Assembly: GCA_964617045.1 (NCBI GenBank) | Contig: CAZTVZ010000004.1 | Coordinates: 15,799-79,798 of the forward strand | DNA from: an uncultured Gammaproteobacteria bacterium | GTDB lineage: Bacteria > Patescibacteriota > Microgenomatia > UBA8517 | DNA length: 64,000 nucleotides | Reading direction: 5' to 3' | In this document: positions 3,740 to 32,790 of the stretch, piece by piece | How the letters are laid out: each line of letters opens with the position of its first letter | Position numbering within the stretch: position 1 is the first letter of the stretch | Notes under the pieces: model-generated | Databases searched by the model: none | What the model saw: the letters and a program-made list of their open reading frames with translations, nothing else | Told to the model about the DNA's origin: nothing | Translations under genes and position numbers: made by a program

Positions 3740-3745
3740 TCTTCT

Positions 3746-5010: not shown

Positions 5011-5050
5011 TCGTTCGGAAATAGTGCGTTAAATGTGCGGTAAATAATCT

Positions 5051-5077: not shown

Positions 5078-5087
5078 CTATCGAATT

Positions 5088-5834
5088 ATGCCTGGAAACT
5101 TAACACAAATATTGGGATTGTCTTTTTTAGGTAGTATTGCCGGACTTATCGGAGGGTTACTGCTACTTTGGAAAGCGAATTTTGCCAAAAAATTCTCCCT
5201 TCCCTTAATTTCTTTTGCGGCAGGAGTGATTTTATCGGTTACCTTCTTGGACATGCTTCCAGAGGCTGTTGAAGCAGGTGGGGAAGGAACATTTCTTCTT
5301 GTAATGATTGGCCTTGTACTCTTTTTTATTGTTGAAGATCTTTTCCTCCATTATCATCACCATGAACAACATTCAGAAAAGGTTAAACCGCTTGTCCCGT
5401 TTTTAATTGTCAGCGATACGATTCACAATTTTATTGACGGTATTGTGATTGCGGCAGCCGTATTGATAGATGTTAATTTGGGATTGGTTGTTGCCTTTGC
5501 AACGTTCTTGCATGAAGTGCCTCAGGAGATAGGGGATTTTGCCGTTATGCTTTCAACCGGGCTTTCCAAAACAAAGACGCTCTTGGCGCATCTTTTTTCA
5601 GCTTGTGCAACTTTTGCAGGAGCACTTTTGACCTACTTTTTTTACAACAATTCGGAGGGGTTAATCGCACCTCTTCTGGCGATAGCTTCGGGAATGTTCC
5701 TTTATATTGCAACTGCCGATATTTTGCCTGAACTTACAAAAACCAAACATGCCCATGGAAGATGGATCGTCGTTGTTCCTTTTGTTCTCGGTTTGGGTAT
5801 TATTTTTATCTTGCACAAATTCATTTCCCATTAG
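5088..5834 (+). CDS. zupT: ZIP-family metal (Zn/Fe) transporter.
   Basis: Conserved ZIP signature HNFxDGxxIA (HNFIDGIVIAAA) and HEVPQEIGDFAV, a His-rich loop HYHHHEQHSE, and 8 TM helices. Length 248 aa. Confidence 0.85.
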   Translation: MPGNLTQILGLSFLGSIAGLIGGLLLLWKANFAKKFSLPLISFAAGVILSVTFLDMLPEAVEAGGEGTFLLVMIGLVLFFIVEDLFLHYHHHEQHSEKVKPLVPFLIVSDTIHNFIDGIVIAAAVLIDVNLGLVVAFATFLHEVPQEIGDFAVMLSTGLSKTKTLLAHLFSACATFAGALLTYFFYNNSEGLIAPLLAIASGMFLYIATADILPELTKTKHAHGRWIVVVPFVLGLGIIFILHKFISH

Positions 5835-5848
5835 GGTAAAATAGAATA

Positions 5849-6274
5849 ATGCAAAAGCTTCTCTATCTATTTATTGGAATAGCCATTGCTTTACTGTTTG
5901 TCGGTATGGCTTTAACTTCGATCAAGCCAATCAAACAAAACGAAAGCACAAATGGAGACACAGGAAAAGAAGAAATCGTTGAGAGTACGACAGGAGAAAC
6001 AGTTGAAGTTCAAATTGTTGGTAACGAATATTCTTTTACCCCTTCAAATATCGAAATTAACAAAGGAGATAAAATAATTCTAACTTTCAGAAACACAGGG
6101 AAAATCCCGCACAACTTGGTAATAGACGAATTGGGAATATCCACAAAAAGTGTATGGAGAGGCCAATCGGATACTGTTGAATTTGTTGCTACGGAATCGG
6201 GAACGTTAAGATATTATTGTTCTATAGGGAATCATGCCGCACTCGGTATGACAGGATCTTTGGAGGTGAAATAG
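5849..6274 (+). CDS. Membrane-anchored cupredoxin (plastocyanin/halocyanin-like blue copper protein).
   Basis: N-terminal TM anchor. C-terminal copper ligands are in the classic arrangement H...C-x-x-x-x-H-x-x-x-x-M (PHNLVID ... YYCSIGNHAALGM). Confidence 0.7.
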   Translation: MQKLLYLFIGIAIALLFVGMALTSIKPIKQNESTNGDTGKEEIVESTTGETVEVQIVGNEYSFTPSNIEINKGDKIILTFRNTGKIPHNLVIDELGISTKSVWRGQSDTVEFVATESGTLRYYCSIGNHAALGMTGSLEVK

Positions 6275-6529
6275 ATGCAGATAATTATATATTCGACAAC
6301 AACATGCCCATACTGCCAAATGCTAAAGGAATATTTGTCTTCAAAACAAATTCAATTTGTTGAAAAGATGGTTGATCAAAACGAAACCGACAGGGAAGAA
6401 ATGTCTAAAGTATCGGGAGGATTTTTGGGTGTTCCTTTTATATACATTAAAAAAGATGATGGAACTGTTGAAACCATCATCGGTTTTGATAAAGGAAAAT
6501 TAAATCTAACGCTAGGAGTGCAGGGATGA
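6275..6529 (+). CDS. Glutaredoxin / NrdH-like redoxin.
   Basis: CPYC active site near the N-terminus (TTCPYCQMLKEYL). Length 84 aa, thioredoxin fold. Confidence 0.75.
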   Translation: MQIIIYSTTTCPYCQMLKEYLSSKQIQFVEKMVDQNETDREEMSKVSGGFLGVPFIYIKKDDGTVETIIGFDKGKLNLTLGVQG

Positions 6530-7182
6530 TATTTATCAATTACAAAGCTTACGCTCAGGGTGCAGGTCAAGAAGGGGTAAAATTAACCAAAGTTCTCGAA
6601 GAAGTGTCTCACGAAACCCATATTAAAGTAGTACCCGTTGTTCAGATACTCAATGCAGAACTAATTGCCGGTTCGACCAGTTTGGACGTATGGATTCAGC
6701 ATATAGATCCGGTTTCTTACGGTCCATATACGGGTTGGACATTACCTGAAGAAGCAGTGAGAGTGGGAATAAAAGGAGTTTTTTTGAATCATTCGGAGCA
6801 TAAATTCGATAATTGGGAAGATTTAACAAAGGCGGTTCTCAGATGTAGAGAAGTTGATCTTAAAACTTTGGTTTTTGCATCCGATACAGAGGAACTAAAA
6901 AGAGTGGTTCAGTTAAAACCTACTTATGTTGCGTATGAACCTGAAGAGCTTGTTGGATCAACGGAAACATCGGTTTCCAGAGCTAAGCCGGAAGTTGTTA
7001 AAGAAGCTTCCGAAATTGCCCAAGAAGCGGGGATACCGTTGATTGTGGGCGCAGGAGTTAATTGCAAAGACGATGTGAAAATTGCTATTGAATTGGGTGC
7101 TTCCGGAGTAGCGGTTGCTACGGACGTAGTGAAAGCCGAAAATCCGAGAGCAGAGCTTATTGACCTGGCGGAGGGTTTTTAA
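6526..7182 (+). CDS. tpiA: Triosephosphate isomerase, short archaeal-type.
   Basis: Length 218 aa against about 250 aa for bacterial TIM. It starts INYKAY, has the catalytic region AYEPEE (catalytic Glu), and a phosphate loop GAGVN...GVAVATD. Confidence 0.75.
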   Translation: MIFINYKAYAQGAGQEGVKLTKVLEEVSHETHIKVVPVVQILNAELIAGSTSLDVWIQHIDPVSYGPYTGWTLPEEAVRVGIKGVFLNHSEHKFDNWEDLTKAVLRCREVDLKTLVFASDTEELKRVVQLKPTYVAYEPEELVGSTETSVSRAKPEVVKEASEIAQEAGIPLIVGAGVNCKDDVKIAIELGASGVAVATDVVKAENPRAELIDLAEGF

Positions 7183-7626
7183 ATGATTTATATCGGCGCC
7201 GACCATAGAGGATTTGAACTTAAAGAAAAAATAATTCTTTGGCTTAAAAATAGTGAATCAAAGGTTGAGGATGAGGGTGCTCACATGTATGATCCTTCGG
7301 ATGATTATCCTGAATATGCACAGAAAGTGGCCTCTTTGGTCAAAAAGGGAGGTAACAAAGGAATATTGCTGTGTGGTTCTGGAGTTGGTGTCCAAGTTGT
7401 TGCCAATAAGTTCGACGGAATAAGAGCGGCAATTGGGCTATCCGAGGAACAGGTAAAAAAGGGGAGGGAAGATGATGATATGAATATCTTGGTAATTGCT
7501 TCTGATTTTACGAATTTTGAAGAAGCAAAAAAAATGATAACAGCATTTTTAAATACTAAATATAAAAAAGAAATTAAACACGAAAGAAGGTTAAGTGAGA
7601 TTGAAAAAATTGAAGCGAATAATTAG
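7183..7626 (+). CDS. rpiB: Ribose-5-phosphate isomerase B.
   Basis: MIYIGADHRGFELK ... LLCGSGVGVQVVANK are hallmark RpiB/LacAB motifs. Confidence 0.85.
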   Translation: MIYIGADHRGFELKEKIILWLKNSESKVEDEGAHMYDPSDDYPEYAQKVASLVKKGGNKGILLCGSGVGVQVVANKFDGIRAAIGLSEEQVKKGREDDDMNILVIASDFTNFEEAKKMITAFLNTKYKKEIKHERRLSEIEKIEANN

Positions 7627-8628
7627 ATGGATAATCTGCCCACAATTACAAAAGAAATTGCAGCCGGAAAAAAAGTAATTCTTCGAGCGGATCTTGATGT
7701 TGACCCGGAAGAATCTGATTTTCGCTTAAAATCACTTCTTCCTACGCTTCGGCTATTGTCCGAAAGCAAGGCCTTAACTACAATAATTGGACACAAAGGT
7801 AGACCTAGTGGGCAAGAAGATCATTCAATGAGTCTGGAACCGGTCTGCGCTAAATTATCCGAACTGCTGGGTGAGAAAATCATATTTAATCAGCAGTTTT
7901 CTGAATGTTCGTTCTCAATGATGGAAAACTTGAGGTTTGAAAAGGGAGAAGAAGAAAATTCCGAAGAACTTATTTCAAAAATCTGTTCGTATGGAGACAT
8001 ATACGTAAACGAAGCATTTTCGGTTTCTCACAGAAAACACGCATCAATCGTAGGTGTCCCTCAAAAATTGAATCATTATGCCGGATTGAGATTCCAAGAA
8101 GAGGTTCGCAATCTTTCAAAACTTGTCGAAAATCCCGATAGGCCCTTTGTAGTGGTATTGGGAGGATTCAAAAACGACAAACTCGATTACCTGGAAGGAC
8201 TTAAAGAAATTTCGGACAAGGTACTTGTGGGTGGAAGGCTTCCGGATTATATGGGTGATTTGGGTAGTGTTCGATCCGTACCGTTTTCGGAAAAGGTTGT
8301 TCCCGGAAACTTGATAATGGATAAAGAGGATATTTCGATTCACACAATTGAGAGATTTGAAGAAGAGATCGGAAAAGCCAAAACCATTTTACTTGCCGGT
8401 CCGATGGGTAAATTTGAAGAAGAAGGTCATAGACAGGGGACAAGTAGAGTGGTCAATGCAATTATCGATTCGAATGCTTTCAAAATTGCAGGTGGCGGAG
8501 ATACTATTCAGGCAATCGAAACATTTAAATTGGAGGAAAGATTTGATTACCTTTCTGTTGCAGGAGGTGCGATGCTTGAATTCTTGGTAAAGAAAACTTT
8601 ACCGGGGATAGAGGCGTTGATAAACTAA
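7627..8628 (+). CDS. pgk: Phosphoglycerate kinase (compact, 333 aa).
   Basis: PGK motifs are in order: RADLDV, IGHKGRP, ENLRFEKGEE, NEAFSVSHRKHAS, LGGFKNDKL, AGPMGKFE, GGGDT, SVAGGAMLE. Confidence 0.85.
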   Translation: MDNLPTITKEIAAGKKVILRADLDVDPEESDFRLKSLLPTLRLLSESKALTTIIGHKGRPSGQEDHSMSLEPVCAKLSELLGEKIIFNQQFSECSFSMMENLRFEKGEEENSEELISKICSYGDIYVNEAFSVSHRKHASIVGVPQKLNHYAGLRFQEEVRNLSKLVENPDRPFVVVLGGFKNDKLDYLEGLKEISDKVLVGGRLPDYMGDLGSVRSVPFSEKVVPGNLIMDKEDISIHTIERFEEEIGKAKTILLAGPMGKFEEEGHRQGTSRVVNAIIDSNAFKIAGGGDTIQAIETFKLEERFDYLSVAGGAMLEFLVKKTLPGIEALIN

Positions 8629-8632
8629 TAAG

Positions 8633-9739
8633 ATGGTAAAAGTAGGGATAAACGGTTTTGGAAGGATAGGGAGATTGGCAACCCGAATTGCTCTTTTAAA
8701 ACATTCGGGAGATATGGATATTGTGGCTATTAATACTTCCGGTTCAATGAACGTATCCGGTTGGGCACATCTTCTCTCTTACGATACAACGTATCGCAAG
8801 TTCGAAAAAGAAGTTCGTTTTGAAGAAGTAAAAAAACCAGAAGAAGCAACAGATGAAGATCCATTAATCGGATATCTTTTAATCGATGGAAGAAAAATTG
8901 CAATTCTTGCCCAGAAAGATCCGGAGAAAATTCCTTGGGGAAAATACGGAGCGGATGTAATAATTGAGTCGACTGGAAAGTTTACTTCTCAAGAAGAAGC
9001 CGGAAAACATTCGGTTGGAGGAGCTAAGGTTGTTATTATTTCTGCTCCTTCCAAAGGGGGAAATGTGGGCACTTACGTAATATCCGTAAATGAATACAAA
9101 GGGGGAGGTCAAGTTATATCAAACTCATCATGTACCACCAACTGTGTTGCACCTGTTGCTGCAATAATGCATTCCAAGTTCGGAATAGAAAAAGCTGCAA
9201 TGACAACGATACATTCGTATACCGATGATCAAAATCTTCAGGATGGATCACACAAGGATTTGAGACGAGCAAGAGCAGCTGCTCAAAATATTGTTCCTAC
9301 GTCCACCGGTGCGGCAATTTCCACAACAGAAACCATTCCGGAGCTGGAGGGGCTTTTTGATGGAATGGCACTAAGGGTACCGGTAGGAACAGGATCTTTA
9401 ACTGACTTTGCCATTGTTACAAAAAGGTCGGTAACAATTGATGAAGTGAACAACGCATTTAAAGAAGCCGCAGATTCTCCCTTGTACAAAGGTATCCTGG
9501 GCGTGACCGAAGATCCTGTTGTTTCCTCGGATATCGTGGGAAGAAGTGAATCCGCGATTGTTGATTTGGGCCTTACTCAGGTAATTGCGGGCACTTTGGT
9601 AAAAATATTCGCCTGGTACGACAACGAATGGGGCTATTCGAACAGGCTTGTGGAACAAGTAATCAGAGTGGGAAATTCACTCGGATCAAAACTGGCTCCC
9701 AGCGATCCGATAACCTTATCATGGAGGGGGAATCAATAA
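8633..9739 (+). CDS. gap: Glyceraldehyde-3-phosphate dehydrogenase, type I.
   Basis: VGINGFGRIGR NAD-binding start, the catalytic motif SNSSCTTNCVAP, and WYDNEWGYSNR at the C-terminus. Confidence 0.95.
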   Translation: MVKVGINGFGRIGRLATRIALLKHSGDMDIVAINTSGSMNVSGWAHLLSYDTTYRKFEKEVRFEEVKKPEEATDEDPLIGYLLIDGRKIAILAQKDPEKIPWGKYGADVIIESTGKFTSQEEAGKHSVGGAKVVIISAPSKGGNVGTYVISVNEYKGGGQVISNSSCTTNCVAPVAAIMHSKFGIEKAAMTTIHSYTDDQNLQDGSHKDLRRARAAAQNIVPTSTGAAISTTETIPELEGLFDGMALRVPVGTGSLTDFAIVTKRSVTIDEVNNAFKEAADSPLYKGILGVTEDPVVSSDIVGRSESAIVDLGLTQVIAGTLVKIFAWYDNEWGYSNRLVEQVIRVGNSLGSKLAPSDPITLSWRGNQ

Positions 9740-10359
9740 TGGTTGACGGATTTACAGAAAGAAAAATAAAACAAATAGCATATTTCGGATTTGCGGATAC
9801 CGACCCCAACGATCCTTTATATAAAGAAGCATACGAAGTGTCAAAGTATTTAACCGAAAAAGGTTTCACCGCAATTAATGGTGGTGGCCCCGGTACAATG
9901 CGTGCGGTATCGGAAGGTGCAAAAAAGGCTAACGGAACAGCTATAGGGGTTACTTTTTATCCCAAAGATATTACCAATTTTGAAGGAAGGGACAAGGGCA
10001 ATCCGATAGATATCGAAATTAAAACCAAAAATTATTTGGAAAGAACCCTAAAACTTTTGGAACTTGGAGATGCGTACATTGTTTTCAAAGGAGGTACGGG
10101 AACGATTTCCGAATTCGCAATGGCTTGGGGATTGGGAAGATTATATTTTGGGCATCACAAACCACTGATTTTATACGGAGACTTCTGGAACAATATAATT
10201 AATTCTTTTATGGAAAATATGAAGATTAGATCTGAAGAATTGAAGGTGTATAGAATAGTCAAAACACCCGAAGAAGCGTTTGAAGCCCTCAATTATTTCG
10301 AAGAAATACTTCACAAGAGAGAAGAAGTGAGTGAAGACGAAAAGGCTTTTCAACTTTAA
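9739..10359 (+). CDS. LOG-family protein (cytokinin riboside 5'-monophosphate phosphoribohydrolase / SLOG-type).
   Basis: INGGGPGTMRAVSEGA and YIVFKGGTGTISE match the LOG/TIGR00730 PGGxGTxxE motifs. The ATG at 9739 overlaps the gap stop. Confidence 0.65.
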   Translation: MVDGFTERKIKQIAYFGFADTDPNDPLYKEAYEVSKYLTEKGFTAINGGGPGTMRAVSEGAKKANGTAIGVTFYPKDITNFEGRDKGNPIDIEIKTKNYLERTLKLLELGDAYIVFKGGTGTISEFAMAWGLGRLYFGHHKPLILYGDFWNNIINSFMENMKIRSEELKVYRIVKTPEEAFEALNYFEEILHKREEVSEDEKAFQL

Positions 10360-10363
10360 AAAT

Positions 10364-11167
10364 ATGGAAAATCTGCCCGATAAAGCCAGACAAGTTAGGA
10401 AACTGGTGTTACAAATGATCTACGAATCCGGTGTTGGACATCCTGCCGGAAGCTTAAGTTCTGCCGATATCCTCACTTATTTATATTCGGTTGAGCTGAA
10501 GAAAAGATCCGATGATCCGTATTGGGAAGATAGAGACAGATTTGTTCTTTCGGCAGGTCATCTTTGTCCGGCTCTTTATTCAATTTTAAGTATTGAAGGA
10601 TATTTTCCCAAGGAAGAATTAAATACTCATGCGAAACTCGGAACGAGACTTCAAGGACATCCGGAAAGAGAAAAAATACCCGGAATAGAAACTTCCTCTG
10701 GATCTTTAGGTATGGGTTTGGGGCAAGCGTCGGGAATTGCATTGGCCGGAAAAATGGACGGAAAGGACTACCGTGTATATTGTCTTTCTTCAGATGGAGA
10801 ACATAATGAAGGATCACATTGGGAAGCAGTAATGTTTGCTGCCAAAAAACATCTTTCCAACTTGGTTTTAATTATCGATAGGAACAAAATTCAAATTGAC
10901 GGGACAACGGAAGAGGTAAATCCTTTGGGAGAACTTGCTCTTAAGTATAAGGAATTTGGATGGAACACTTTAGAAATTGATGGGCATAATTTTGAAGAAA
11001 TGGAAAAAGCTTTCGTTGAAGCAAAGGAAGAAAAACAAAAACCGACAGCAATTATTGCGACCACAATTGCCGGTAAAGGTGTATCTTTTATGAACAGCCC
11101 ATTATGGCATGCAAAGGTGCCAACAAAAGAGGAATACGATAATGCAATGGAGGAATTAAATGCTTAA
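10364..11167 (+). CDS. tktN: Transketolase, N-terminal (TPP-binding) subunit.
   Basis: SGVGHPAGSLSSADIL, GHL(C)PALY, and the TPP-binding motif GSLGMGLGQASGIA. It is split from the next ORF in the archaeal-style two-gene arrangement. Confidence 0.9.
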   Translation: MENLPDKARQVRKLVLQMIYESGVGHPAGSLSSADILTYLYSVELKKRSDDPYWEDRDRFVLSAGHLCPALYSILSIEGYFPKEELNTHAKLGTRLQGHPEREKIPGIETSSGSLGMGLGQASGIALAGKMDGKDYRVYCLSSDGEHNEGSHWEAVMFAAKKHLSNLVLIIDRNKIQIDGTTEEVNPLGELALKYKEFGWNTLEIDGHNFEEMEKAFVEAKEEKQKPTAIIATTIAGKGVSFMNSPLWHAKVPTKEEYDNAMEELNA

Positions 11168-23309: not shown

Positions 23310-23338
23310 TTGACCATCTAACTGTAGTGTTAGATTAT
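23310..23338 (+). promoter_or_regulatory. Promoter TTGACC-17-GATTAT upstream of nrdR, overlapping a 5-6-5 inverted repeat that is a candidate NrdR box.
   Basis: TTGACC at 23310-23315, GATTAT at 23333-23338. The inverted repeat CTAAC-TGTAGT-GTTAG (23318-23334) has a right half TAGTGT like the NrdR-box consensus. A second near-palindrome GTTTCCATATGTGAAAC sits at 23365-23381. Confidence 0.35.
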
Positions 23339-23397
23339 GTTTCTCGAACCTACCCATAGCGCTTTTTGTTTCCATATGTGAAACAAGAAAGGTCAAA

Positions 23398-23841
23398 ATG
23401 AAATGTCCGTTTTGTGCACACCTAAATACGAAGGTTTTAGAATCCAGAATTGTGGAGGAAGGCGAAGCTTTGCGCAGGCGAAGAGAGTGTATCAAATGTG
23501 GCAGAAGGTTTACAACTTTTGAGAAAGTTAGAGACACGGTTTTGTGGGTAATCAAGAAATCGGGGAAAAGAGATCCTTTCGACAGAGAAAAGGTAAAAAG
23601 AGGAATTTTAAGAGCGATAGAAAAAAGACCGGTTTCTCTGGAATTGGTTGAAGATATTGTAAACGACATAGAGAGAGAATTATTGAGAAACGGAAAAGAA
23701 GAGATACCGAGCAAATTAATAGGAAATGCAGTCTTGAAAAGATTAAAAAGAGTGGATAAAGTAGCTTGGTTGCGATTTGCAAGTGTCTATCTTGAATTTG
23801 AGGATGTTGGAGATTTTGAGAAAGCGATAGATAAAGTATGA
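23398..23841 (+). CDS. nrdR: Transcriptional repressor NrdR.
   Basis: N-terminal zinc ribbon MKCPFC...C(I)KCG followed by an ATP-cone. Length 147 aa. It sits directly upstream of the RNR genes. Confidence 0.9.
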   Translation: MKCPFCAHLNTKVLESRIVEEGEALRRRRECIKCGRRFTTFEKVRDTVLWVIKKSGKRDPFDREKVKRGILRAIEKRPVSLELVEDIVNDIERELLRNGKEEIPSKLIGNAVLKRLKRVDKVAWLRFASVYLEFEDVGDFEKAIDKV

Positions 23842-26423
23842 CAAAGAAAAACAAAATAACATTAGATTCTTTTTCATTTCCTTCATATGAGGAAATTAAA
23901 AAAGATATTATCAATAAGATCGGAGATAAACCTGCAATGCCCACCGATCTTACCGAAGGCAATTGGACCGAACAGTCTCTGAAAGTTTTAAACGAGAGAT
24001 ATCTTCTGAGAGATAAAGAAGGAAACATAATAGAAACTCCTTCGCAAATGTGTTGGAGAGTCGCATGGGAAATTGCTTCAACTGGGGTAAGGTGGGGACA
24101 AACAAAAGAGGAAGTAATAAATACTGCACGAGAATACTACCGGCTTCTTTCCTCTCACGAGTTTTTGCCAAATTCTCCAACATTAATGAATGCCGGTGCC
24201 AATAATCATATGCAACTTTCCGGATGCTATGTGTTACCAGTAGAAGATTCTTTGGTGGGAATATTTGATGCAATTAAATACCAGGCACTTATTCATCAAA
24301 CTGGTGGTGGAACAGGTTTTTCTTTCTCAAGATTAAGGCCAAAAGGATCAGTCGTTGGTTCTAGTAAAGGGACTGCATCAGGCCCAGTTTCTTTTATGAG
24401 AATATTCGATTCTGCCACAAATGAAATAAAACAAGGAGGTAAAAGAAGAGGTGCCAATATGGGTATTTTGAGGGTCGACCACCCCGATGTTCTTGAATTT
24501 ATCCATTGCAAAGAAGATGGGGGAATCACCAACTTCAATATTTCCGTGGGGATAACGGATGCGTTTATGAAGGCATATGATCGTGATGAAGAATACGATC
24601 TTGTTAATCCCAAAACAAAAGAAAAGACAGGAAGTTTGTCTGCAAGAAAAGTATTCCAAGAAATTGCGGAAAGTGCTTGGAAATCGGGTGATCCTGGTTT
24701 GGTTTTCATCGACAGGTTAAATAGGGGAACGGCAAATCCGGTTCCAGTAATGGGCCCGGTTGAATCGACCAATCCTTGTGGCGAGCAACCTCTTTATCCT
24801 TGGGATTCCTGTAATTTGGGATCGATATTCTTAACCTATTTTGTAAAAGAAAAAGACGGGAAGAAATCTGTTAACTGGGAACGATTATCCGAAGTAACAA
24901 GACTTGCGGTTAGATTCTTGGATGGAGTTATCGAAGTAAATCCATACACCCTTCCACAAATCAGACAGACAACGTTCGGGATAAGAAGAATCGGATTGGG
25001 TGTTGGAGGTTGGTCCGACATGCTAATAGAGTTGGGTATTCCGTATGATTCCGAAGAGGCTTTGGAATTGGCTGCAAAAGTAATGAAATTTGTTAATAAG
25101 GAAGCGATAGCTGAATCTGAAGAATTGGCAAAAACAAGAGGGCCTTTTCCGATGTATCCGGTATCAATATATAAACATTTGAAACCAAGAAGAAATGCAA
25201 CTCTTACAACTATTGCTCCAACGGGAACAATTTCAATTATTGCAGGAGCCTCTTCGGGAATTGAGCCGATGTTCGCTATCGCATACCAACATATTGTTAA
25301 AGACAAACACTTGGATAGAAGAATGTCTTTCGTTAATCCTAAGTTTGAAGAGTTGGCAAAGAAAAGAGAAATATGGACAGATGAAATAAGAAAAATGGTT
25401 GAGGAAAAAGGAGTAGTGAGAGCAATTGAAGAAATCCCCCAAGATATCAGAAAATTATTTGGCACTGCTCATGAAATATCTCCATCATGGCATGTAAAAA
25501 TGCAGGCAGCATTCCAAAAATATACGGACAATGCAGTCAGTAAAACAATTAATTTGGATCATAATGCAACAATTAATGATGTTAAAAAAGCATATCTTTT
25601 GGCATGGGACACCGGATGCAAGGGGATAACCGTATTCAGGGACGGTTGTAAAGATATGCAGGTATTAAATTTGGGTTTGGGTGAAGTAAAGGATAAAACA
25701 AATATCGATAATACCGGGGTTCCACTCCGTGATAGGCCGGCTAAAGTATTCGGTGCTACTTATAAAATGAACACTCCCGTTGGAAGCGCATTTATCACTA
25801 TTAATCAGGACGAAAACGAAGATCCGTTGGAAGTATTTATCAATGTAGGTAAAGCAGGAAGTGATGTTGCGGCAATGGCGGAAGCTTTGGGAAGGACAAT
25901 ATCAACTGCACTAAGATTCCGAGGGTCTTTGGGGCCGAAAGAAAAAGCCAAAGAAATTGCCGGTCAATTATCCGGAATAGGTGGAAGAAGATCTGTGGGG
26001 TTTGGACCCAACAAAGTAAGATCTTTACCGGATGCTATCAGCTCGGCATTATCAATGCACTACGGTTTTAAAATTAACGGAAACGGCCACGCTGAAGCGC
26101 CACTAAAAGCGGCCGGTGCTGTTATGGAGGCGGTGGGTTCTGCCCAGGTAGAACAAACCCCAACGGGTTATCCCGGCCCCACAATGGCTTCGACCGCCTC
26201 TAATGGCGCTTCAAACGGCAACGGACATTATACGAATGGACATTCGGCTCAAACTCTCGAAAGCATTCAAGAAATTGTTTTACCAACGGAAGATGAAGTA
26301 AAAGATTATTCTTTCGAAACAATGGAAAAACCAGGTGATATCTGCCCCGCATGTGGTGCTTCCGCTCTTGTTTATGAGGAGGGATGTTCCAAATGTCACG
26401 CCTGTGGCCATTCGGAGTGCTAA
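23838..26423 (+). CDS. nrdJ: Ribonucleotide reductase, class II (adenosylcobalamin-dependent), with a C-terminal zinc ribbon.
   Basis: RNR catalytic fold motifs LPNSPTLMNAG, SGCYV, and TNPCGEQPLYPWDSCNLGS (thiyl-radical Cys loop). No ATP cone. A low-complexity Ser/Asn/Gly linker precedes the CPACG...CSKCHACG tail. Confidence 0.9.
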   Translation: MTKKNKITLDSFSFPSYEEIKKDIINKIGDKPAMPTDLTEGNWTEQSLKVLNERYLLRDKEGNIIETPSQMCWRVAWEIASTGVRWGQTKEEVINTAREYYRLLSSHEFLPNSPTLMNAGANNHMQLSGCYVLPVEDSLVGIFDAIKYQALIHQTGGGTGFSFSRLRPKGSVVGSSKGTASGPVSFMRIFDSATNEIKQGGKRRGANMGILRVDHPDVLEFIHCKEDGGITNFNISVGITDAFMKAYDRDEEYDLVNPKTKEKTGSLSARKVFQEIAESAWKSGDPGLVFIDRLNRGTANPVPVMGPVESTNPCGEQPLYPWDSCNLGSIFLTYFVKEKDGKKSVNWERLSEVTRLAVRFLDGVIEVNPYTLPQIRQTTFGIRRIGLGVGGWSDMLIELGIPYDSEEALELAAKVMKFVNKEAIAESEELAKTRGPFPMYPVSIYKHLKPRRNATLTTIAPTGTISIIAGASSGIEPMFAIAYQHIVKDKHLDRRMSFVNPKFEELAKKREIWTDEIRKMVEEKGVVRAIEEIPQDIRKLFGTAHEISPSWHVKMQAAFQKYTDNAVSKTINLDHNATINDVKKAYLLAWDTGCKGITVFRDGCKDMQVLNLGLGEVKDKTNIDNTGVPLRDRPAKVFGATYKMNTPVGSAFITINQDENEDPLEVFINVGKAGSDVAAMAEALGRTISTALRFRGSLGPKEKAKEIAGQLSGIGGRRSVGFGPNKVRSLPDAISSALSMHYGFKINGNGHAEAPLKAAGAVMEAVGSAQVEQTPTGYPGPTMASTASNGASNGNGHYTNGHSAQTLESIQEIVLPTEDEVKDYSFETMEKPGDICPACGASALVYEEGCSKCHACGHSEC

Positions 26424-26426
26424 TAG

Positions 26427-28586
26427 ATGGAAGAAAAAATACTCTTAAATAAAAAAGTAGTAAAAGCCGGAGGTGCGGAAGAAAATTTTAACCTCGAAAA
26501 AATAAAAAACAGTATTTGGTATGCTGCACAAAACGTTGGAGGAAAAGATAAGAAACTCTCAGAAGGATTATCCAAAGAAGTTCAAAAGTATTTGTTGGAA
26601 CATTTAAACGGAGAAGAAAAAATTAAATCGAGTTTGATTGGAGAGGCTGTCGAAAAAGTATTAATCGAAAAAGGACATGCAAAAACAGCCAAAGCATATA
26701 TCTTATTCAGGGAAAACAAAAAACACTTGAGACAGGACAAAGAAACGCTTGGGGTTAACGACGATATAGGTCTTTCGTATAACACTTTGTATATTCTGAA
26801 ATCCAGATATTTAAAAAAGGATGAAAAAGGAGATGTTATTGAATCACCCCGTGAATTAATCGAGAGAGTTGCCAATTGTTTGTCTTCTGTGGAGAAAAAC
26901 GATCAGGAAAAGAAAAAATGGTTCGAAAGATTTATGAATATCATGATTTCTTTTGAGTTTTTGCCGGGAACCCGAACATTGGCTAACGCGGGACTTCGTA
27001 ATCCTCAACTGGCAAACTGTTTTGTTTTCGACCTGGAAGATGATATAGACGGAATTTTTGAAACACTTCACAAATCAACTTTGATAAAAAAACACGGAGG
27101 GGGATGCGGATATAACTTTACCAGGATTAGACCCGAAAGCGATCTTGTTAGTGGAATTCCAGGTTTGGCAGCGGGACCTGTGAGAATGATAGAAATGTTC
27201 GATTTAATGACATCACTTTTTAAACAACAGGGGAAATATGAAAGTGGGAATATGGCAATTTTAAACGCAAATCACCCTGATATTTTTAATTTTATTTCGG
27301 CCAAACAAAATGAAAATTATTTGACAAAAACCAATCTGTCCGTAGGAATAACCGACGAATTTATGAATGCTGCCGTAAAAGATAAAACATGGCAACTAAA
27401 AAGTCCGAGAACCGGGGAAATTGTCAGCGAAGTTGAGGCAAATTCAATACTTGAGTTGATGGCACAGATGGCTTGGGCAACAGGTGATCCGGGTATAATC
27501 AACCTTTCTGCAATCAATAGGGGAACCAAACTGGCAAACCCGTTATACAAAAAGAAGGGTCCAATAATGGCTACCAATGTTTGTGGTGAAATACCTTTAT
27601 ACCCTTACGAATCGTGCAATCTTGGATATCTAAACCTTACGAAATTTGTTATTGGAAAAAAGTTTGATTACAAAAGATTTAAAGAAGTAATGAAGATTGC
27701 TGTTAGGTTAATGGACAACGTAATTGACGCTTCTTGGTTCCCGGTAAGAGAAGTGGAAAAGGCGGTTCGTGATCACAGAAGACTGGGTATTGGGGTTGTT
27801 GGTTGGGCGGAAACCCTTATTATGCTTGGCATACCTTACAACAGTAGCGAAGCTTACAAATTCGCGGAAGAATTAACAAAAACGATGTATCAGACTGCTT
27901 TCAATACATCTTGCGAGCTAGCAAAAGAAAAAGGACCTTTTCCTCTTGTTCAAGATTCAATATGGGCAAATGCAAAAAGGAAACCAAGGAACGTTGCTTT
28001 AATAACTTTTCCTCCATCAAGCGGAAACGCGGTGCTTTGTGAGACCTCATATGGTATTGAACCCTTATTCGCAATTGCCTACGAACAAAACGTTTTGGGA
28101 GGAGAAAGGTTTACCAATATTAATCCTCTTTTTGTCCGAGAGTTGAGAGAAAGAGGTTTGTATTCAGAGAAGATAATCGAGAAAGTAATAAAAAATCACG
28201 GATCTGTTCAGGGAATTAAAGAAATCCCACAGGATATGCAAAAAATATACAAAGTTGCACACGATATTAACTGGAGAGATCACATCAAGATGCAAGCTGC
28301 ATTTCAAAAATGGACAGATAACGCAATTACAAAAACAATAAATATGCCTTCATCAACAACGCCGGGAGATATTAAAGAAGCTTACATTTTGGCATGGAAG
28401 CTGGGATGCAAAGGCTTAACCGTTTACAGGGATAAGACTAAACAAAACCAAGTATTTGAATTTGGAAAAAGTTCGTCTTCTGTTGGAAAGATCAGTAAAA
28501 CTTGTCCTACTTGTTCCACCAAGCTTTTTAAAGACGGTAAATGTCTGAAGTGCAAGAACTGTGGTTTTTCCACTTGTGAGTTATAA
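26427..28586 (+). CDS. nrdJ: Ribonucleotide reductase, class II paralog, with an N-terminal ATP-cone and a C-terminal zinc ribbon.
   Basis: N-terminal ATP-cone (VVKAGGAEENFNLEKIKNSI), catalytic motifs FLPGTRTLANAG, ANCFV, ATNVCGEIPLYPYESCNLG, and a C-terminal CPTCS...CLKCKNCG. Confidence 0.85.
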   Translation: MEEKILLNKKVVKAGGAEENFNLEKIKNSIWYAAQNVGGKDKKLSEGLSKEVQKYLLEHLNGEEKIKSSLIGEAVEKVLIEKGHAKTAKAYILFRENKKHLRQDKETLGVNDDIGLSYNTLYILKSRYLKKDEKGDVIESPRELIERVANCLSSVEKNDQEKKKWFERFMNIMISFEFLPGTRTLANAGLRNPQLANCFVFDLEDDIDGIFETLHKSTLIKKHGGGCGYNFTRIRPESDLVSGIPGLAAGPVRMIEMFDLMTSLFKQQGKYESGNMAILNANHPDIFNFISAKQNENYLTKTNLSVGITDEFMNAAVKDKTWQLKSPRTGEIVSEVEANSILELMAQMAWATGDPGIINLSAINRGTKLANPLYKKKGPIMATNVCGEIPLYPYESCNLGYLNLTKFVIGKKFDYKRFKEVMKIAVRLMDNVIDASWFPVREVEKAVRDHRRLGIGVVGWAETLIMLGIPYNSSEAYKFAEELTKTMYQTAFNTSCELAKEKGPFPLVQDSIWANAKRKPRNVALITFPPSSGNAVLCETSYGIEPLFAIAYEQNVLGGERFTNINPLFVRELRERGLYSEKIIEKVIKNHGSVQGIKEIPQDMQKIYKVAHDINWRDHIKMQAAFQKWTDNAITKTINMPSSTTPGDIKEAYILAWKLGCKGLTVYRDKTKQNQVFEFGKSSSSVGKISKTCPTCSTKLFKDGKCLKCKNCGFSTCEL

Positions 28587-28594
28587 TCTTCAAA

Positions 28595-29131
28595 ATGTCT
28601 ATCTACACAAAAAAGGGTGACGGAGGAGAAACAGGCTTATATTCCAGAACCAAAGACAAGGTTGTCCGTATTTTCAAAGATTCACCAATAATCGAGGCGA
28701 TAGGATCTGTCGATGAGGCAAATTCATTTTTGGGTATATGTGCGGACTGTCCCAACAACAATCTTCACAAGAAGATCGTGATTATCCAAAGGGCTTTGTT
28801 TACCGTTGGAGGAATTCTTGCAGGTGCAAAATTATCTATTTCAAATAAACAAATCGAGTATTTGGAAAACGAAATAGACTCCATGGATAAAGAACTTCAA
28901 AAATTATCAGGGTTTATTCTACCTGGAGGTGGATTTACGGGAAGCCATCTTTTTATGGCAAGAACGTTAATAAGGAAAGCTGAACGAAAATTGGTTCGTT
29001 TATCTAAAGAAGAAAAGGTTCCTGCAAGTGTTCTCGTATATGTAAACAGGCTCTCGGATTATGTTTATACCCTCGCAAGATACAGCAATTTGAAAGAAGG
29101 AATTAAAGAGGAGTCTTGGAAGCGTAAATAA
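28595..29131 (+). CDS. pduO: ATP:cob(I)alamin adenosyltransferase, PduO-type.
   Basis: N-terminal TKKGDGGETGL (the PduO T(R/K)xGDxGxT motif) and EANSxxG. Length 178 aa. Confidence 0.8.
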   Translation: MSIYTKKGDGGETGLYSRTKDKVVRIFKDSPIIEAIGSVDEANSFLGICADCPNNNLHKKIVIIQRALFTVGGILAGAKLSISNKQIEYLENEIDSMDKELQKLSGFILPGGGFTGSHLFMARTLIRKAERKLVRLSKEEKVPASVLVYVNRLSDYVYTLARYSNLKEGIKEESWKRK

Positions 29132-29148: not shown

Positions 29149-29490
29149 ATGACCATGACTCCGGAACGGGGGAGTTTTCCTGTACAGGAAAGACCGGAAG
29201 AGTTTCCCGAAATTCCGTTAGAAATTGAAAATAAGACTGCCTTAACTCCTACACCTGTCCAATTTAAAGCACAGGTTAAAGACGATAGAGGTAAACCGCT
29301 AATTTCAACCTCCGAAAGGGAAGAAAATAAAATTGTAATTCCCAAACCTAAGGAGCAATTGGAAATTGGAGCAAAGGGTTCAGCCGGCGATGCTTTAACC
29401 TGGTTCAGTCAATTTTGGTTGAGGGCAATTAAAAAAGCGGTATTGGTTGGGAAACAAATATTTTTAAGGAGGGAAAATGCCAATAATTGA
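29149..29490 (+). CDS. Hypothetical protein.
   Basis: 113-aa ORF whose end overlaps the start of the downstream ATPase. No recognisable domain. Confidence 0.35.
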   Translation: MTMTPERGSFPVQERPEEFPEIPLEIENKTALTPTPVQFKAQVKDDRGKPLISTSEREENKIVIPKPKEQLEIGAKGSAGDALTWFSQFWLRAIKKAVLVGKQIFLRRENANN

Positions 29491-31804
29491 TATTAACGCA
29501 ATCGTTTTAGCACTTCTTTTGTTGGGACTTCTTGTTTTGGGATTGTTTGTAATTGGATATGTAGCGTTCATCTTTATTAGGCACAGGAATCGTGAGGAGA
29601 AATCTTTGGAATCAGTACTCATGCAAATAGCAGTTCCAAGAGGAAATGAAACAAAAATTGATGCAATGGAACAAATGTTCTCGTCTCTTTCTTCCTTGAA
29701 AAAAGGAGGCTTTTGGCAAAAGTTTTCATTCCAACCTACGATATCTTTCGAAATTGTGGCCAGAAAGGAAGATATTCGTTTCTATATCTGGACACCGGTA
29801 AAATATAAAGATCTTTTAGAAAAACAAATACACGGAGCTTTTCCTGATGCGGAAGTTTTGGAGGTATCCGAATACAACATATTTAACGAATCGGGCAAAG
29901 TTGCTTATAAATCGCTGCAACTTTCCAAAGAAAATTACTACCCGATCAAGACTTTTAAGGATTTGGCCACCGATCCTTTGGCTGCGATTACCTCTTCGAT
30001 GGCAAAGATGGGGGACGGTGAGGCAGCAGCAGTCCAAATAGTTGTTTCTCCCGCCGATATCCCTTGGCAAAAAGAAGGGGGTAGTTATATCTCCGATACA
30101 AAAAAACAGGAATCTAATCCGGAAAAAGCCAGTTTTTCTACTTCGGGAAAAACTCTTGAATCAATTGAGAGCAAGACTTCCAAACCCGGTTTTGAAGTAT
30201 CGATAAGAATCGTTGCGGTTGCTCCTTCCGAAGAAATTGCAAAAATGCACCTGACCAACATTGAAGCAGGTTTTGAACAATTTAGTTCGGATACCAACAA
30301 ATTCCGATCAAGAAAAATTCGCAACAAAGGAGCTTTTATTGAAGATTTTCTTTATCGGTATCAACCAATGTTTCATTTATTTGGGAATCGCTCTTCGATC
30401 TTAAATTCTGAGGAATTGGCAACACTATTCCATTTTCCGAACAAACAAATTACAACACCCCACATTTATTGGATATATTCAAAAACCGCTCCTGCACCAT
30501 CCGATATTCCAAATGAAGGAATGTTTTTGGGAATTAGTGCCTACAGAGGGGTAAAAAGATCGGTATACATTTCCGACGAAGACAGAAGAAGACACACATA
30601 CATAATCGGAAAAACAGGAACAGGAAAGACAGAACTTTTAAAAGATATGATTTTGCAGGACATTAAAGCGGGTCGTGGAATATGTTTTATGGATCCTCAT
30701 GGAGACGCGATCGAAGATATTTTAAAACAGATTCCTCCGGAGAGAGCGGAAGACGTGATTTATTTTAATCCCGGTGACACCGAAAGGCCGATGGGATTAA
30801 ATCTTCTTGAAGCAAGAACGGAAGATGAAAAACATTTTGTTGCAACATCCGTTATTAATATGATGTACAAGCTTTTCGATCCTTATAAGACAGGTATCGT
30901 GGGTCCTCGATTCGAGCATGCCGTAAGAAACGCAATGCTAACCGTAATGGCAGAACCGGGTAATACTTTCGTTGAGGTCATGAGAGCATTAACCGATGCC
31001 AATTTTGTTCAAGAACTTCTTCCCAAAGTAACCGACCCGATTATCAGAAGGTATTGGACAGATCAAATAGCTCAAACCGCCGATTTTCATAAGTCGGAAG
31101 TTTTGGACTACATTGTTTCCAAATTTGGAAGATTTGTTACCAATAAAATGATTAGAAACATAATTGGACAATCTCAATCTTCATTCTCTTTCAGAAATAT
31201 TATGGATGAAGGGAAAATTCTTTTAATTAATTTGGCTAAAGGTGAAATAGGGGAGGAAAACTCTAATTTCTTGGGACTTGTTTTGGTCCCCAGAATTTTA
31301 ATGGCTGCTATGAGTAGACAAGATGTTCCTGAAGACCAGAGGCGTGACTTCTTCCTTTATGTTGACGAGTTCCAAAATTTTGCCACCCCCGATTTTGCGC
31401 AGATTCTTTCCGAAGCAAGAAAATACAAATTAAACCTTTGTGTTGCCAACCAGTTTATCGGACAGGTTGAGGAAGAGGTGAAAAATGCGGTATTTGGAAA
31501 TGTGGGAACAATTATTGCCTTTAGGGTTGGTGTTACGGACGCTTCTTACCTTGCTCACGAATTTACTCCAACTTTCGGTGAAGATGACCTTTTGAACATA
31601 GAAAGATACCACGCTTATATTAAAACGATAGTTCACAATGAACCCGTGCCCCCGTTCTCAATGGATTTGACCAAAGATATTGCTGCCCAAAAAGCAGCAG
31701 AAAATCATAGAGTAGCAGAAATCGTAAAAGAAATGAGCAGGCTAAAATTTGGAAGAGACGAGCGTCTAGTTGAAGCAGAAATGACCAGAAGGGCTAAGCT
31801 TTAG
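29477..31804 (+). CDS. T4SS-type P-loop ATPase (FtsK/HerA superfamily, VirB4/VirD4-TraD-like) with an N-terminal TM helix and a family-specific N-domain.
   Basis: N-terminal TM helix. Walker A HTYIIGKTGTGKTELL then DPHGD (the T4CP DPxGD-like motif), Walker B FFLYVDEFQNF, and the C-terminal motifs ARKYKLNLCVANQFIGQ. It is a paralog of the ATPase at 61450..63648. Confidence 0.7.
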   Translation: MPIIDINAIVLALLLLGLLVLGLFVIGYVAFIFIRHRNREEKSLESVLMQIAVPRGNETKIDAMEQMFSSLSSLKKGGFWQKFSFQPTISFEIVARKEDIRFYIWTPVKYKDLLEKQIHGAFPDAEVLEVSEYNIFNESGKVAYKSLQLSKENYYPIKTFKDLATDPLAAITSSMAKMGDGEAAAVQIVVSPADIPWQKEGGSYISDTKKQESNPEKASFSTSGKTLESIESKTSKPGFEVSIRIVAVAPSEEIAKMHLTNIEAGFEQFSSDTNKFRSRKIRNKGAFIEDFLYRYQPMFHLFGNRSSILNSEELATLFHFPNKQITTPHIYWIYSKTAPAPSDIPNEGMFLGISAYRGVKRSVYISDEDRRRHTYIIGKTGTGKTELLKDMILQDIKAGRGICFMDPHGDAIEDILKQIPPERAEDVIYFNPGDTERPMGLNLLEARTEDEKHFVATSVINMMYKLFDPYKTGIVGPRFEHAVRNAMLTVMAEPGNTFVEVMRALTDANFVQELLPKVTDPIIRRYWTDQIAQTADFHKSEVLDYIVSKFGRFVTNKMIRNIIGQSQSSFSFRNIMDEGKILLINLAKGEIGEENSNFLGLVLVPRILMAAMSRQDVPEDQRRDFFLYVDEFQNFATPDFAQILSEARKYKLNLCVANQFIGQVEEEVKNAVFGNVGTIIAFRVGVTDASYLAHEFTPTFGEDDLLNIERYHAYIKTIVHNEPVPPFSMDLTKDIAAQKAAENHRVAEIVKEMSRLKFGRDERLVEAEMTRRAKL

Positions 31805-31839: not shown

Positions 31840-31910
31840 GGGTCCTTCGTTCAATGGCAGGACACGACTCTTATAAAGTCGACACAGGGGTTCGATTCCC
31901 TTAGGACCCA
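31840..31910 (+). tRNA. tRNA-Ile with anticodon UAU.
   Basis: Manual fold: a 7-bp acceptor stem GGGTCCT/AGGACCC, a D-arm GTTC/GGAC, an anticodon stem CGACT/AGTCG with loop CTTATAA (U33, anticodon TAT, A37), a T-arm AGGGG-TTCGATT-CCCTT, and discriminator A. CCA is not encoded. Confidence 0.7.
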
Positions 31911-31923
31911 CACTTTTAGGTTT

Positions 31924-32790
31924 TCAGAGTTCAATAAGAAGTTGTTTTTTGCCGGGTTCTTTAACCTGTGCAAGCTCCAAATATCTTTCGGTTGTGGAAA
32001 GTCTTTTGTGTCCGGAAACCTGAGAAAGGAGAACGATGTCCACTCCGGCTTTAATGTTTTCAACAATGAAAGTAGTCCTCAAATCATTTACGGAATAGTT
32101 TGGCATTTCTGCTCTTTGCATGTATCTGTCGATTGCTGCCCTAATATTTCTTACAGCCAATGGTTTACCGTTTTTTGATACAAAAAGGTATTCGGAGGCA
32201 ATTTTATTGGGCCTTGTTGCTGAATAACTGGAAATTGCTTCTTTTGCGGCTCTGTTTAAGGGAATGGTTCTTTCAGGCTGCGTTGCGTAAGCCTCTATCT
32301 TCATGTGGTCTCCTTTTAGGTTTGATAGTTTAAGGCTTGCTACTTCGGAAATTCTAATTCCTGTTTGGAGAATTATTTCAACAATTGCAGCAATTCTAAT
32401 GTCGCTCCTGACAACGTCGCGCAAAGCTCTGTATTCGAGAGGAGAGAGAAACTTGGGAAGTGAACTTTCGATCTTGGGATGTGCAACGGAAAGTGATGGA
32501 TCCGAAGCTAAATGGTTTTCGGATATTAGCCATCTGAAGAATGTTTTTACAGCATTTAATTTTCTGGAAACTGTTTTTGGAGTATATTTTTCGGCCAAAA
32601 GTTGATCTCTAAAAGATTCAAGATCGGACGCAATTATTTGCTCCGGGAGGCCTTTGTTTTTACGCGTCAAATATTGAACAAGCTGTTCAAGATCGGCTCT
32701 GTAGGCAAGTATTGTTGCCGGAGAACGACCTTTCTCTTTAAGGCTCTCGATAAACTTCGGAAGCAGGTTCTTAAGTGTTTCTTGTGTCAT
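31924..32790 (-). CDS. xerC: Tyrosine site-specific recombinase, XerC/XerD family.
   Basis: The 288-aa length, the N-terminal SAM-like domain (ILAYRADLEQLVQYL), and the C-terminal catalytic R...HxxR...Y (GHKRLSTTERYLEL) are Xer-like. Confidence 0.8.
   Translation of the reverse strand: MTQETLKNLLPKFIESLKEKGRSPATILAYRADLEQLVQYLTRKNKGLPEQIIASDLESFRDQLLAEKYTPKTVSRKLNAVKTFFRWLISENHLASDPSLSVAHPKIESSLPKFLSPLEYRALRDVVRSDIRIAAIVEIILQTGIRISEVASLKLSNLKGDHMKIEAYATQPERTIPLNRAAKEAISSYSATRPNKIASEYLFVSKNGKPLAVRNIRAAIDRYMQRAEMPNYSVNDLRTTFIVENIKAGVDIVLLSQVSGHKRLSTTERYLELAQVKEPGKKQLLIEL

Follow-up and report, generated by a model that had tools for sequence, protein, structure and literature searches.

Cells make DNA precursors de novo through ribonucleotide reductase (RNR) alone, and both its allosteric code, which resides in loops 1 and 2, and its choice between ribonucleoside diphosphates (NDPs) and triphosphates (NTPs) are held to be nearly universal and evolutionarily stable. 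In nrdR-nrdJ operons, such as nrdRJ of Streptomyces, the repressor gene nrdR lies directly upstream of the reductase gene, overlapping or abutting it, and tandem 16-bp NrdR boxes are found ~31-32 bp apart over the promoter. The locus described here occupies positions 23310 to 29131 of a 64,000-nucleotide (nt) stretch, referred to below as the window (positions 15,799 to 79,798 of contig CAZTVZ010000004.1, assembly GCA_964617045.1, deposited as an uncultured Gammaproteobacteria bacterium and placed by GTDB in the Microgenomatia of the Patescibacteriota). To the Streptomyces type of unit it adds a second, different nrdJ gene and a gene for an adenosyltransferase. Two adjoining genes named nrdJ are also known from Pseudomonas aeruginosa; however, NrdJb of that organism is only the C-terminal IscU-like and zinc-finger part of the enzyme, whereas the two genes of the window, nrdJ1 and nrdJ2 (products J1 and J2), each encode a complete core and tail. 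We consider the chances to be somewhat better than even (roughly 0.55) that the locus is one NrdR-repressed unit encoding two independent, competent adenosylcobalamin (AdoCbl) reductases, J1 acting on NDPs and J2 most probably on NTPs, together with the adenosyltransferase PduO.

The closest described pattern is that of genomes with several NrdJ proteins. According to Schell et al. (2021; PMC8365446), the apical phosphate loop sets the phosphate preference of NrdJ: PNSP marks NDP reducers, while P[ASG]GR, PSMR and PQGSP mark NTP reducers, and every experimentally verified NTP reducer has an arginine at apical position 4. Of 24,059 genomes, 1108 possess more than one NrdJ, and 760 of these 1108 (69%) mix predicted NDP and NTP types. 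The window resembles such genomes in pairing a PNSP-type NrdJ with one that has the NTP-like Arg4, and an NDP plus NTP pair thus fits the commonest multi-NrdJ pairing published. J2 nevertheless differs from that set, as its apical motif, PG[TS]R, lies outside those listed and changes extend to its distal loop and to loops 1 and 2.

Operon organization

Families were assigned with Pfam and NCBIfam profiles at their curated cutoffs. The unit comprises four open reading frames (ORFs) on the forward strand, exactly those listed in the original prediction, which had been made from the nucleotide sequence of the window. The first, nrdR (23398..23841, +), encodes a repressor of 147 amino acids (aa) with a zinc-ribbon and an ATP-cone (204 bits with TIGR00244, whose cutoff is 125), and it overlaps nrdJ1 by 4 nt (ATGA). 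The gene nrdJ1 (23838..26423, +) encodes a cone-less, canonical dimer-type class II RNR of 861 aa. It is followed after 3 nt by nrdJ2 (26427..28586, +), which encodes a 719-aa class II RNR with an ATP-cone, a member of a distinctive clade; a Shine-Dalgarno sequence, GGAG, stands ~10 nt upstream of its ATG and within nrdJ1. A further 8 nt separate nrdJ2 from a gene for a PduO-type ATP:cob(I)alamin adenosyltransferase of 178 aa (28595..29131, +), which scores 165 bits with TIGR00636 (cutoff 108) and 158 bits with PF01923 (cutoff 24). The operon begins, as had been proposed, with nrdR, whose promoter is covered by NrdR boxes, and the enzyme that forms AdoCbl is encoded after both reductase genes. 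We infer that nrdR, nrdJ1, nrdJ2 and pduO are co-transcribed.

In contrast, the view that pduO closes the operon is not supported: two further genes follow on the same strand. These lie at 29149-31804 (+) and encode a 113-aa protein without a family match and then a TrwB/TraG-like ATPase of the coupling-protein kind, 775 aa in length, to which precomputed hits assign DUF8128. A terminator scan downstream of pduO produced no convincing candidate, with consensus matches as numerous as in shuffled sequences, and the transcription unit may therefore continue into these two syntenic genes. Both trail pduO in nearly all syntenic loci.

Predicted control by NrdR

A putative sigma-70-type promoter at 23310..23338 (+), matching at 9 of 12 positions, is formed by TTGACC (23310) and GATTAT (23333) with a 17-nt spacer. 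The two hexamers, which had been named as the nrdR promoter, are by themselves at chance level, scoring no better than shuffles; the other part of that proposal, their overlap with an NrdR site, stands and is their sole support. The site itself had been placed correctly, although in a different register: in place of a CTAAC/GTTAG repeat, there are two 16-mers with a CTA-N4-TAG core. Box 1 (distal), CATCTAACTGTAGTGT, spans 23315..23330 between the -35 and -10 hexamers, and box 2 (proximal), AACCTACCCATAGCGC, lies at 23347..23362, 32 bp after box 1 and just past the -10 hexamer.

The NrdR-box consensus that we employed is that of the literature, and its A/T-rich pattern is misleading in the window when used alone, as it yields a spurious site at -223; the CTA-N4-TAG core and a comparison of orthologs were therefore needed. 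Shuffled sequences lead one to expect 0.035 pairs of such cores at 30-34 bp spacing, and the 64 kb contain this single one. Box 1 matches the distal boxes ending in ...TGTAGTGT that precede nrdR in orthologous loci, while box 2 matches TCACTACCAATAGTGA of two of these (L018/L022; L numbers denote loci and P numbers proteins of the comparison) at 11 of 16 bases. Across 27 orthologous upstream regions, the best consensus matches group into distal boxes with the ending ...TGTAGTGT and, 31-32 bp away, proximal boxes of the form TCACTA-N4-TAGTGA. When the window is included, box pairs scoring at least 21 are present in 15 of 28 upstream regions, as compared to 5% of shuffles. With its own NrdR gene and tandem 16-bp boxes over the promoter, the operon is a predicted member of the NrdR regulon, and the position of the boxes around the -35 and -10 elements appears to be the usual geometry of repression.

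Two complete class II reductases

Both enzymes pass the NrdJ equivalog model TIGR02504 (700 bits for J1 and 600 bits for J2; cutoff 400), and the RNR all-alpha and barrel domains (PF00317 and PF02867) were detected in each. J1 additionally passes PRK08665 (1013 bits against a cutoff of 961). With TIGR02506, a class I model, J2 is only just above the cutoff (352 against 341), a score far below that which it obtains with the NrdJ model. The best solved relative of both is NrdJ of Thermotoga maritima, represented by PDB 1XJE and related entries (E values of 6e-124 for J1 and 2e-101 for J2), and its full catalytic set of C134, N320, C322, E324 and C333 corresponds to C130, N312, C314, E316 and C325 in J1 and to C198, N384, C386, E388 and C397 in J2. 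These cysteines, asparagine and glutamate are invariant among 22 J1-type and 43 J2-type sequences. The finger loop reads NPCGE in J1, NVCGE in J2 of the window and NPCGE in most J2 orthologs; N[PV]CGE is the class II type (PMC9669993). No NrdB-like ORF was present among the annotated ORFs of the 64 kb. The TV[YF]RD motif, which we take to occupy the position of the class I Tyr-Tyr dyad, holds a single F in J1 (TVFRDG) and a single Y in J2 (TVYRDK). The idea of a class I enzyme misread as class II is rejected on the model scores, the finger loop and the ranking of PDB relatives.

J1 and J2 share 41% identity over 573 aa of the catalytic core. When identities between paralog clades were computed over T. 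maritima residues 125-450, they amounted to 34-50% among the clades and 35-46% to T. maritima NrdJ. A recent duplication is ruled out by these values, the clades being as distant from one another as from the T. maritima enzyme, and J1 and J2 are either ancient paralogs or were acquired separately. Neither ORF has a frameshift, and both are full length. In shared loci, identity to the window proteins is 60-72% for J1 orthologs and 64-71% for J2 orthologs, which suggests that both genes are under selection; across species, identity within either family is 60-78%. The claim of two complete and different class II RNRs is thus borne out, as the copies are neither near-identical nor deficient in catalytic residues, and the rejection of a NrdJa/NrdJb split was equally sound, this arrangement being ruled out by the domain content of both genes. 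Both enzymes would depend on AdoCbl.

Recognition loops and predicted phosphate preference

J1 is composed of the RNR all-alpha, barrel and TSCPD domains and has no ATP-cone. Its apical phosphate loop is PNSP (aa 111-114), its loop 2 is IKQGGKRRGANM (aa 197-208) and its distal phosphate loop is APTGTIS (aa 460-466). In these respects J1 and T. maritima NrdJ are alike, with loop 2 KQG[SG][RK]RRGA, apical PNSP and distal APTG[ST]IS in common. PNSP is retained in 20 of the 21 J1-clade orthologs that cover the region, the remaining one (L020) having PGSP. Since J1 occurs without J2 in the same neighbourhood in ~14 relatives, it appears to be the housekeeping NrdJ of the lineage, marked by its apical loop as a ribonucleoside-diphosphate reducer. 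It had been suggested that one copy may be allosterically simplified; the loops of the cone-less J1 are, however, canonical, and it is J2, the copy with the ATP-cone, that is rewired. The Ser/Asn/Gly linker described in the C-terminal region of J1 is indeed present, although the folded TSCPD/IscU-like domain (aa 642-742) preceding this low-complexity linker had been missed. Some J1 homologs carry inteins (P0123 and P0132, ~1230 aa; PF14528/PF14890), besides many matches longer than 1000 aa; in related NrdJ proteins, the insertions are at the finger loop or loop 2, and the window genes have none.

In J2, an ATP-cone (aa 10-99) is followed by the RNR all-alpha and barrel domains, and four recognition loops depart from those of J1 and T. 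maritima NrdJ. The apical phosphate loop is PGTR (aa 180-183; PG[TS]R in the family, with PGGR once, in L012). Loop 1, RIRPESD (aa 233-239), has RPE.D where the canonical enzymes have RPKGS, and loop 2, FKQQGKYESGNM (aa 265-276), follows the pattern KQ[EQ]G[KR]YESGN in place of KQGGKRRGAN. The distal phosphate loop is FPPSSGNAV (aa 528-536), with FPPSSGN replacing APTG[ST]IS, and the motif after the first redox cysteine is DDI as opposed to DS[IL]. The T. maritima enzyme is devoid of KQQGKYESG, PGTR and FPPSSGN, as well as of the ATP-cone. All four altered loops are conserved across the J2 clade, the internal identity of which is 64-78%. The substrate-facing Lys and Gln of loop 2, K202/Q203 in T. 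maritima NrdJ (PMC3267527), are kept in both J1 and J2.

The neighbours of J2 were sought in a set of 1.8 billion proteins, represented by clusters at 50% identity. Among the nearest representatives, the J2 motifs were confined to the clusters of J2 itself, the neighbours being canonical and 37-44% identical. This search revealed no closer parent outside the candidate phyla radiation (CPR), and the sole nearer representative beyond the cluster of J2 was P0260 (72% identical, with an insertion). In a genome scan, matches to the YESGNM pattern were limited to CPR bacteria, a small number of Actinobacteria and two metagenome-assembled genomes labelled Anaerolineae (L044) and Kangiella (L060). J2 seems to represent a distinctive, undescribed NrdJ sub-group, in which the chemistry has been kept and the recognition surfaces have been rebuilt. 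The actinobacterial proteins (Micromonospora and Streptomyces, L047-L054, at ~9000-10800) are cone-less J2-like NrdJs of 42-46% identity, with a YESGNM loop 2 and a PGSR apical loop. In L047, the one annotated locus among them, the J2-like gene stands outside any nrd operon and beside genes with uracil phosphoribosyltransferase-like, NUDIX, methyltransferase and PfkB-kinase domains, and this locus may be a nucleoside-modifying cluster.

The apical loop of J1 fits the NDP motif PNSP and that of J2 does not. When PGTR is compared with the NTP motifs, Arg4 and Gly2 fit, while Thr/Ser3 is outside the variants described or tested. Because J2 shares the arginine at apical position 4 with every triphosphate reducer so far verified, NTP reduction is its most likely activity, and its allosteric behaviour is probably altered. 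Several observations weigh against this assignment and against the reading of the operon built on it. PG[TS]R is not among the loops whose specificity has been measured, and its Thr/Ser3 might hydrogen-bond the beta-phosphate in the manner of the PNSP serine. By overall similarity, J2 stands no closer to enzymes of the PAGR type than to those of the PNSP type, with 34% identity to clade c1, as against 42% to J1 and T. maritima NrdJ. In canonical NTP-type neighbours, the distal loop is still APTG and loop 2 is normal, and the changes in J2 therefore exceed an NDP/NTP switch. In L002 and L011, J2 is paired with a PAGR-type enzyme, which would make two NTP reducers per array. Finally, the independence of J1 and J2 is deduced from their presence or absence within flanks of 5-10 kb. 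Should J2 be no more than an NTP reductase, the operon would be one neat case of a pattern known from the literature.

C-terminal tails

The original prediction gave each enzyme a zinc-ribbon tail, with four cysteines in that of J1; the tails are there, with six cysteines each in the spacing of the cysteine-rich domain (CRD) published by Loderer et al. (2017). These are cysteines 836, 839, 850, 853, 856 and 861 in J1 and 693, 696, 706, 709, 712 and 717 in J2. The first five of J2 are spaced as 920/923/933/936/939 in NrdJd of S. nassauensis, and J1 has one extra residue in the first spacer. In the S. nassauensis domain, four cysteines bind zinc, and the non-zinc C933 is required for turnover with the tail-specific reductant tris(2-carboxyethyl)phosphine (PMC5704485); the remaining two tail cysteines are a pair positioned for reduction of the active site (PMC9669993). 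All six are found in 22 of 22 J1-clade sequences and in every J2 with a tail of ~35-55 aa, except for one with five and one cut by a contig end (L021, L036).

Compared with the IscU-like/zinc-finger C-termini described previously (PMC9669993), J1 has the long form, with IscU-like/TSCPD domain and zinc finger, and J2 the short, zinc-finger-only form. Frankia and some Alphaproteobacteria possess two NrdJd per genome, one of them with a CRD (PMC5704485), whereas J1 and J2 both have one. As both tails are of the same six-cysteine zinc-finger type (PMC5704485), separate reductants are not indicated, contrary to the suggestion that one copy may use a different reductant through its tail; the two appear to be of one kind, a known predicted zinc-finger domain.

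Distribution and gene neighbourhood

Two samples of loci were compared. A scan with J2-family patterns, restricted to one genome per species, provided 56 loci, in which the ORFs were classified; the J1-side sample consisted of three long contigs and 80 metagenome loci. In ~35 of the 56 loci, the genes form a block of Rce1-like, DUF5667, nrdR, J1, J2, (pduO), hypothetical and TrwB-like genes, and the order J1 then J2 is fixed. Most of the informatively named loci are from Woesebacteria, with many others bearing only the label 'Patescibacteria group' or 'uncultured Gammaproteobacteria'. On the J1 side, the DUF5667-nrdR-J1-pduO-hypothetical-TrwB block is found without J2 in the Woesebacteria-type contigs L061-L066, L068-L071 and L079, and with J2 only in L090. 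Overall, J1 lacks J2 within the same synteny in ~14 loci, and the nrdR-nrdJ(PNSP) module is dominant in the metagenome sample. The slot after J1 is variable: in L062, genes for a CTP synthase and a NUDIX protein separate J1 from pduO.

J2 can also be found by itself. Six loci (L033-L036, L038 and L040) contain no other RNR within at most 9 kb, bounded by contig ends, and J2 is the only RNR seen locally in Dojkabacteria-like loci. It seems that J1 is the resident enzyme, sufficient by itself, and that in some members of the lineage J2 has been inserted as an accessory gene between it and pduO. The J1-only and J2-only loci argue against an obligate J1/J2 complex, and the two enzymes would be independent of each other.

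To describe the pair of reductases as unusual was to overstate the case, since the same block recurs in ~35 Woesebacteria species genomes and multi-NrdJ genomes are well represented in the survey cited above. The operon is a well-conserved feature of the lineage and an instance of the reported NDP plus NTP pattern. A full-text literature search found no tandem NrdR-controlled nrdJ operon in CPR bacteria, nor is there one in the parts of PMC8365446 consulted, and nothing relevant on NrdJ in CPR or Patescibacteria was encountered in the literature. The very small genomes of CPR bacteria devote 4.7 kb (up to ~8 kb in relatives) to B12 reductases, in addition to adenosylation of the cofactor. The J2 clade, abundant and strongly conserved, amounts to an experiment by nature on the encoding of specificity, and with it the reasons for retaining two NrdJs in one cell can be put to a concrete test.

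Tandem arrays and fused reductases

Some relatives possess more than two NrdJ genes in tandem, namely three in L014, L022, L028 and L045 and four in L026, L041, L056 and L057, the extra copies being located upstream of the J2-type gene. Such arrays occur in WWE3-, CPR3- and Woesebacteria-type genomes, and the paralogs are full-length. Each array paralog clade has a loop 2 of its own and a non-canonical apical loop (CT[TR]S, SGTP, PGGS or SGKP), with the catalytic Cys, Asn and Glu retained. Most cores in the four-gene arrays have no cysteine tail.

Three proteins, P0261 (1600 aa), P0262 (1351 aa) and P0283 (cut by a contig end), contain two different complete NrdJ cores in one polypeptide. In P0261 and P0262, the double cores are followed by one TSCPD (IscU-like) domain and one zinc-finger tail. 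These double-core proteins hint that unlike NrdJ cores may be able to pair, in clades other than those of J1 and J2. No description of a natural double-core class II RNR was found in the literature consulted on NrdJ. The arrays of three to four genes and the fused double-core enzymes are more surprising than the J1/J2 operon itself.

Proposed mechanism and alternative explanations

In the mechanism that we propose, NrdR would sense the balance of dATP and ATP and repress one promoter serving J1, J2 and PduO. J1 would be the canonical NDP reductase, its six-cysteine tail shuttling reducing equivalents, and J2 a second reductase, probably for NTPs, whose ATP-cone would give it on-off control by dATP and ATP. 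PduO would convert salvaged cob(I)alamin to AdoCbl for both enzymes, and the NDP and NTP routes to deoxyribonucleoside triphosphates would operate within one cell.

A different role for J2, which we regard as possible though doubtful, is that of a specialised reductase, either restricted to some of the four bases or acting on a non-canonical ribonucleotide. All four substrate and effector loops have been remodelled together, are invariant in the clade and are absent from the nearest 50%-identity representatives, and the individual loops of the paralogs in the three- to four-gene arrays, with their catalytic residues kept, have the look of a division of labour; the cone-less Micromonospora and Streptomyces relatives, moreover, are in a non-nrd context. 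Yet J2 keeps the loop-2 Lys and Gln, the ATP-cone, the redox tail and NrdR control, that is, the full outfit of a housekeeping enzyme, it is the only local RNR in the Dojkabacteria-like loci, and no modified-nucleotide genes are nearby in the window. A broader proposal is equally tentative: J2 might found an undescribed subclass, made up of the CPR Microgenomates-type enzymes and their cone-less actinobacterial cousins, that through its rebuilt phosphate pocket and allosteric loops is off the textbook effector-substrate code and is part of a CPR habit of maintaining two to four tandem or fused NrdJ paralogs, substrate-specialised or heterodimeric. If this were true, a gene-level division of labour among NrdJ paralogs would replace part of the allosteric control of specificity.

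Less probable still is an association of J1 with J2 in a heterodimer or mixed oligomer, one asymmetric enzyme to which J2 would contribute the ATP-cone, for overall on/off control, and one kind of specificity site, while oligomerisation would fall to the IscU-like domain of J1. In dimeric RNRs, loop 1 of one chain and loop 2 of the other make up the effector site. That this site is at the dimer interface (PMC9669993) is in keeping with such an enzyme, as is the ability of the tail of one subunit to reduce the active site of another in trans (PMC5704485). The tight coupling of the genes, with the 3-nt gap and the Shine-Dalgarno sequence of nrdJ2 inside nrdJ1, and the J1-then-J2 order fixed in ~35 genomes point the same way, and the double-core polypeptides of relatives provide a Rosetta-stone hint. 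On the other hand, the fusions join a canonical core to another non-canonical clade, with a 'CGGA' apical loop, and not to a J2-type core, and J1 and J2 each have a full catalytic set and their own tail. The ~14 loci with J1 and no J2, and the six with J2 and no adjoining NrdJ, weaken the obligate form of this association in particular. Finally, we reject the idea that J2 (or J1) is decaying or non-catalytic, a pseudo-enzyme or regulatory subunit, as very improbable, since only the odd loops of J2 and the valine of NVCGE in the window speak for it, against intact ORFs, NPCGE in most J2 orthologs, and catalytic residues and cross-species identity maintained in both families as detailed above.

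Cobalamin supply

If both reductases depend on AdoCbl, as predicted, the operon implies a firm dependence on scavenged cobalamin in the CPR bacteria that carry it. In most syntenic loci, pduO lies downstream of the RNR gene or genes. The organism had been thought probably unable to make cobalamin, and this is upheld in so far as no cobalamin synthesis genes were present among the annotated ORFs of the window, with salvage being plausible; a check for btuFCD-like transporter genes among the same ORFs of the 64 kb likewise found none. In the four-gene array locus L041, positions 1298-11040 hold ftsZ, three NrdJ genes, genes for a CobA/BtuR-type adenosyltransferase, DUF4430, DUF6580 and thymidylate kinase, and a J2-type NrdJ gene. 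The CobA/BtuR-type enzyme would do the job of PduO in that locus, and the DUF4430 and DUF6580 genes may encode components of cobalamin uptake.

The window also contains an AdoCbl-II riboswitch (RF01689, 37.3 bits) at 4689-4762 (-), directly upstream of an ORF at 3746-4672 (-). The product is a soluble protein of 308 aa without a Pfam match, and its family is small, with 19 clusters and hits only from metagenome assemblies. Invariant positions of this family include W-I-S-P-P (96-100), C243 and, at the C terminus, a zinc ribbon of the form CxxC...CxxC. Homologs of 41% identity (L144, L145) also have the riboswitch upstream, and the gene appears to be B12-regulated, in a bacterium whose recognised RNRs are of the B12-requiring class.

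Other features of the window

Named homologs are from Candidatus Woesebacteria, Microgenomates or Patescibacteria, and on this basis the bacterium is taken to be Woesebacteria-like, with a small genome; the content of the window is typical of CPR genomes, with glycolysis and pentose-phosphate genes, penicillin-binding proteins and a 16S rRNA gene without an adjoining 23S. This 16S rRNA gene lies at 55180-56642 (+), and in place of a 23S it is followed by two ORFs of 880 and 411 aa on the opposite strand (56950-61119, -), neither with a Pfam match. A second TraG-D_C protein is encoded at 61450-63648 (-). Downstream of the operon, a tRNA-Ile gene (anticodon TAT; 31840-31911, +) adjoins a tyrosine-recombinase gene (31924-32790, -), which is found again downstream of the block in L001, L003, L061 and L063. 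Because it recurs in this position in several relatives, the recombinase is more likely of the Xer type than a prophage integrase. A thioredoxin-reductase-like gene is located at 49349-50317.

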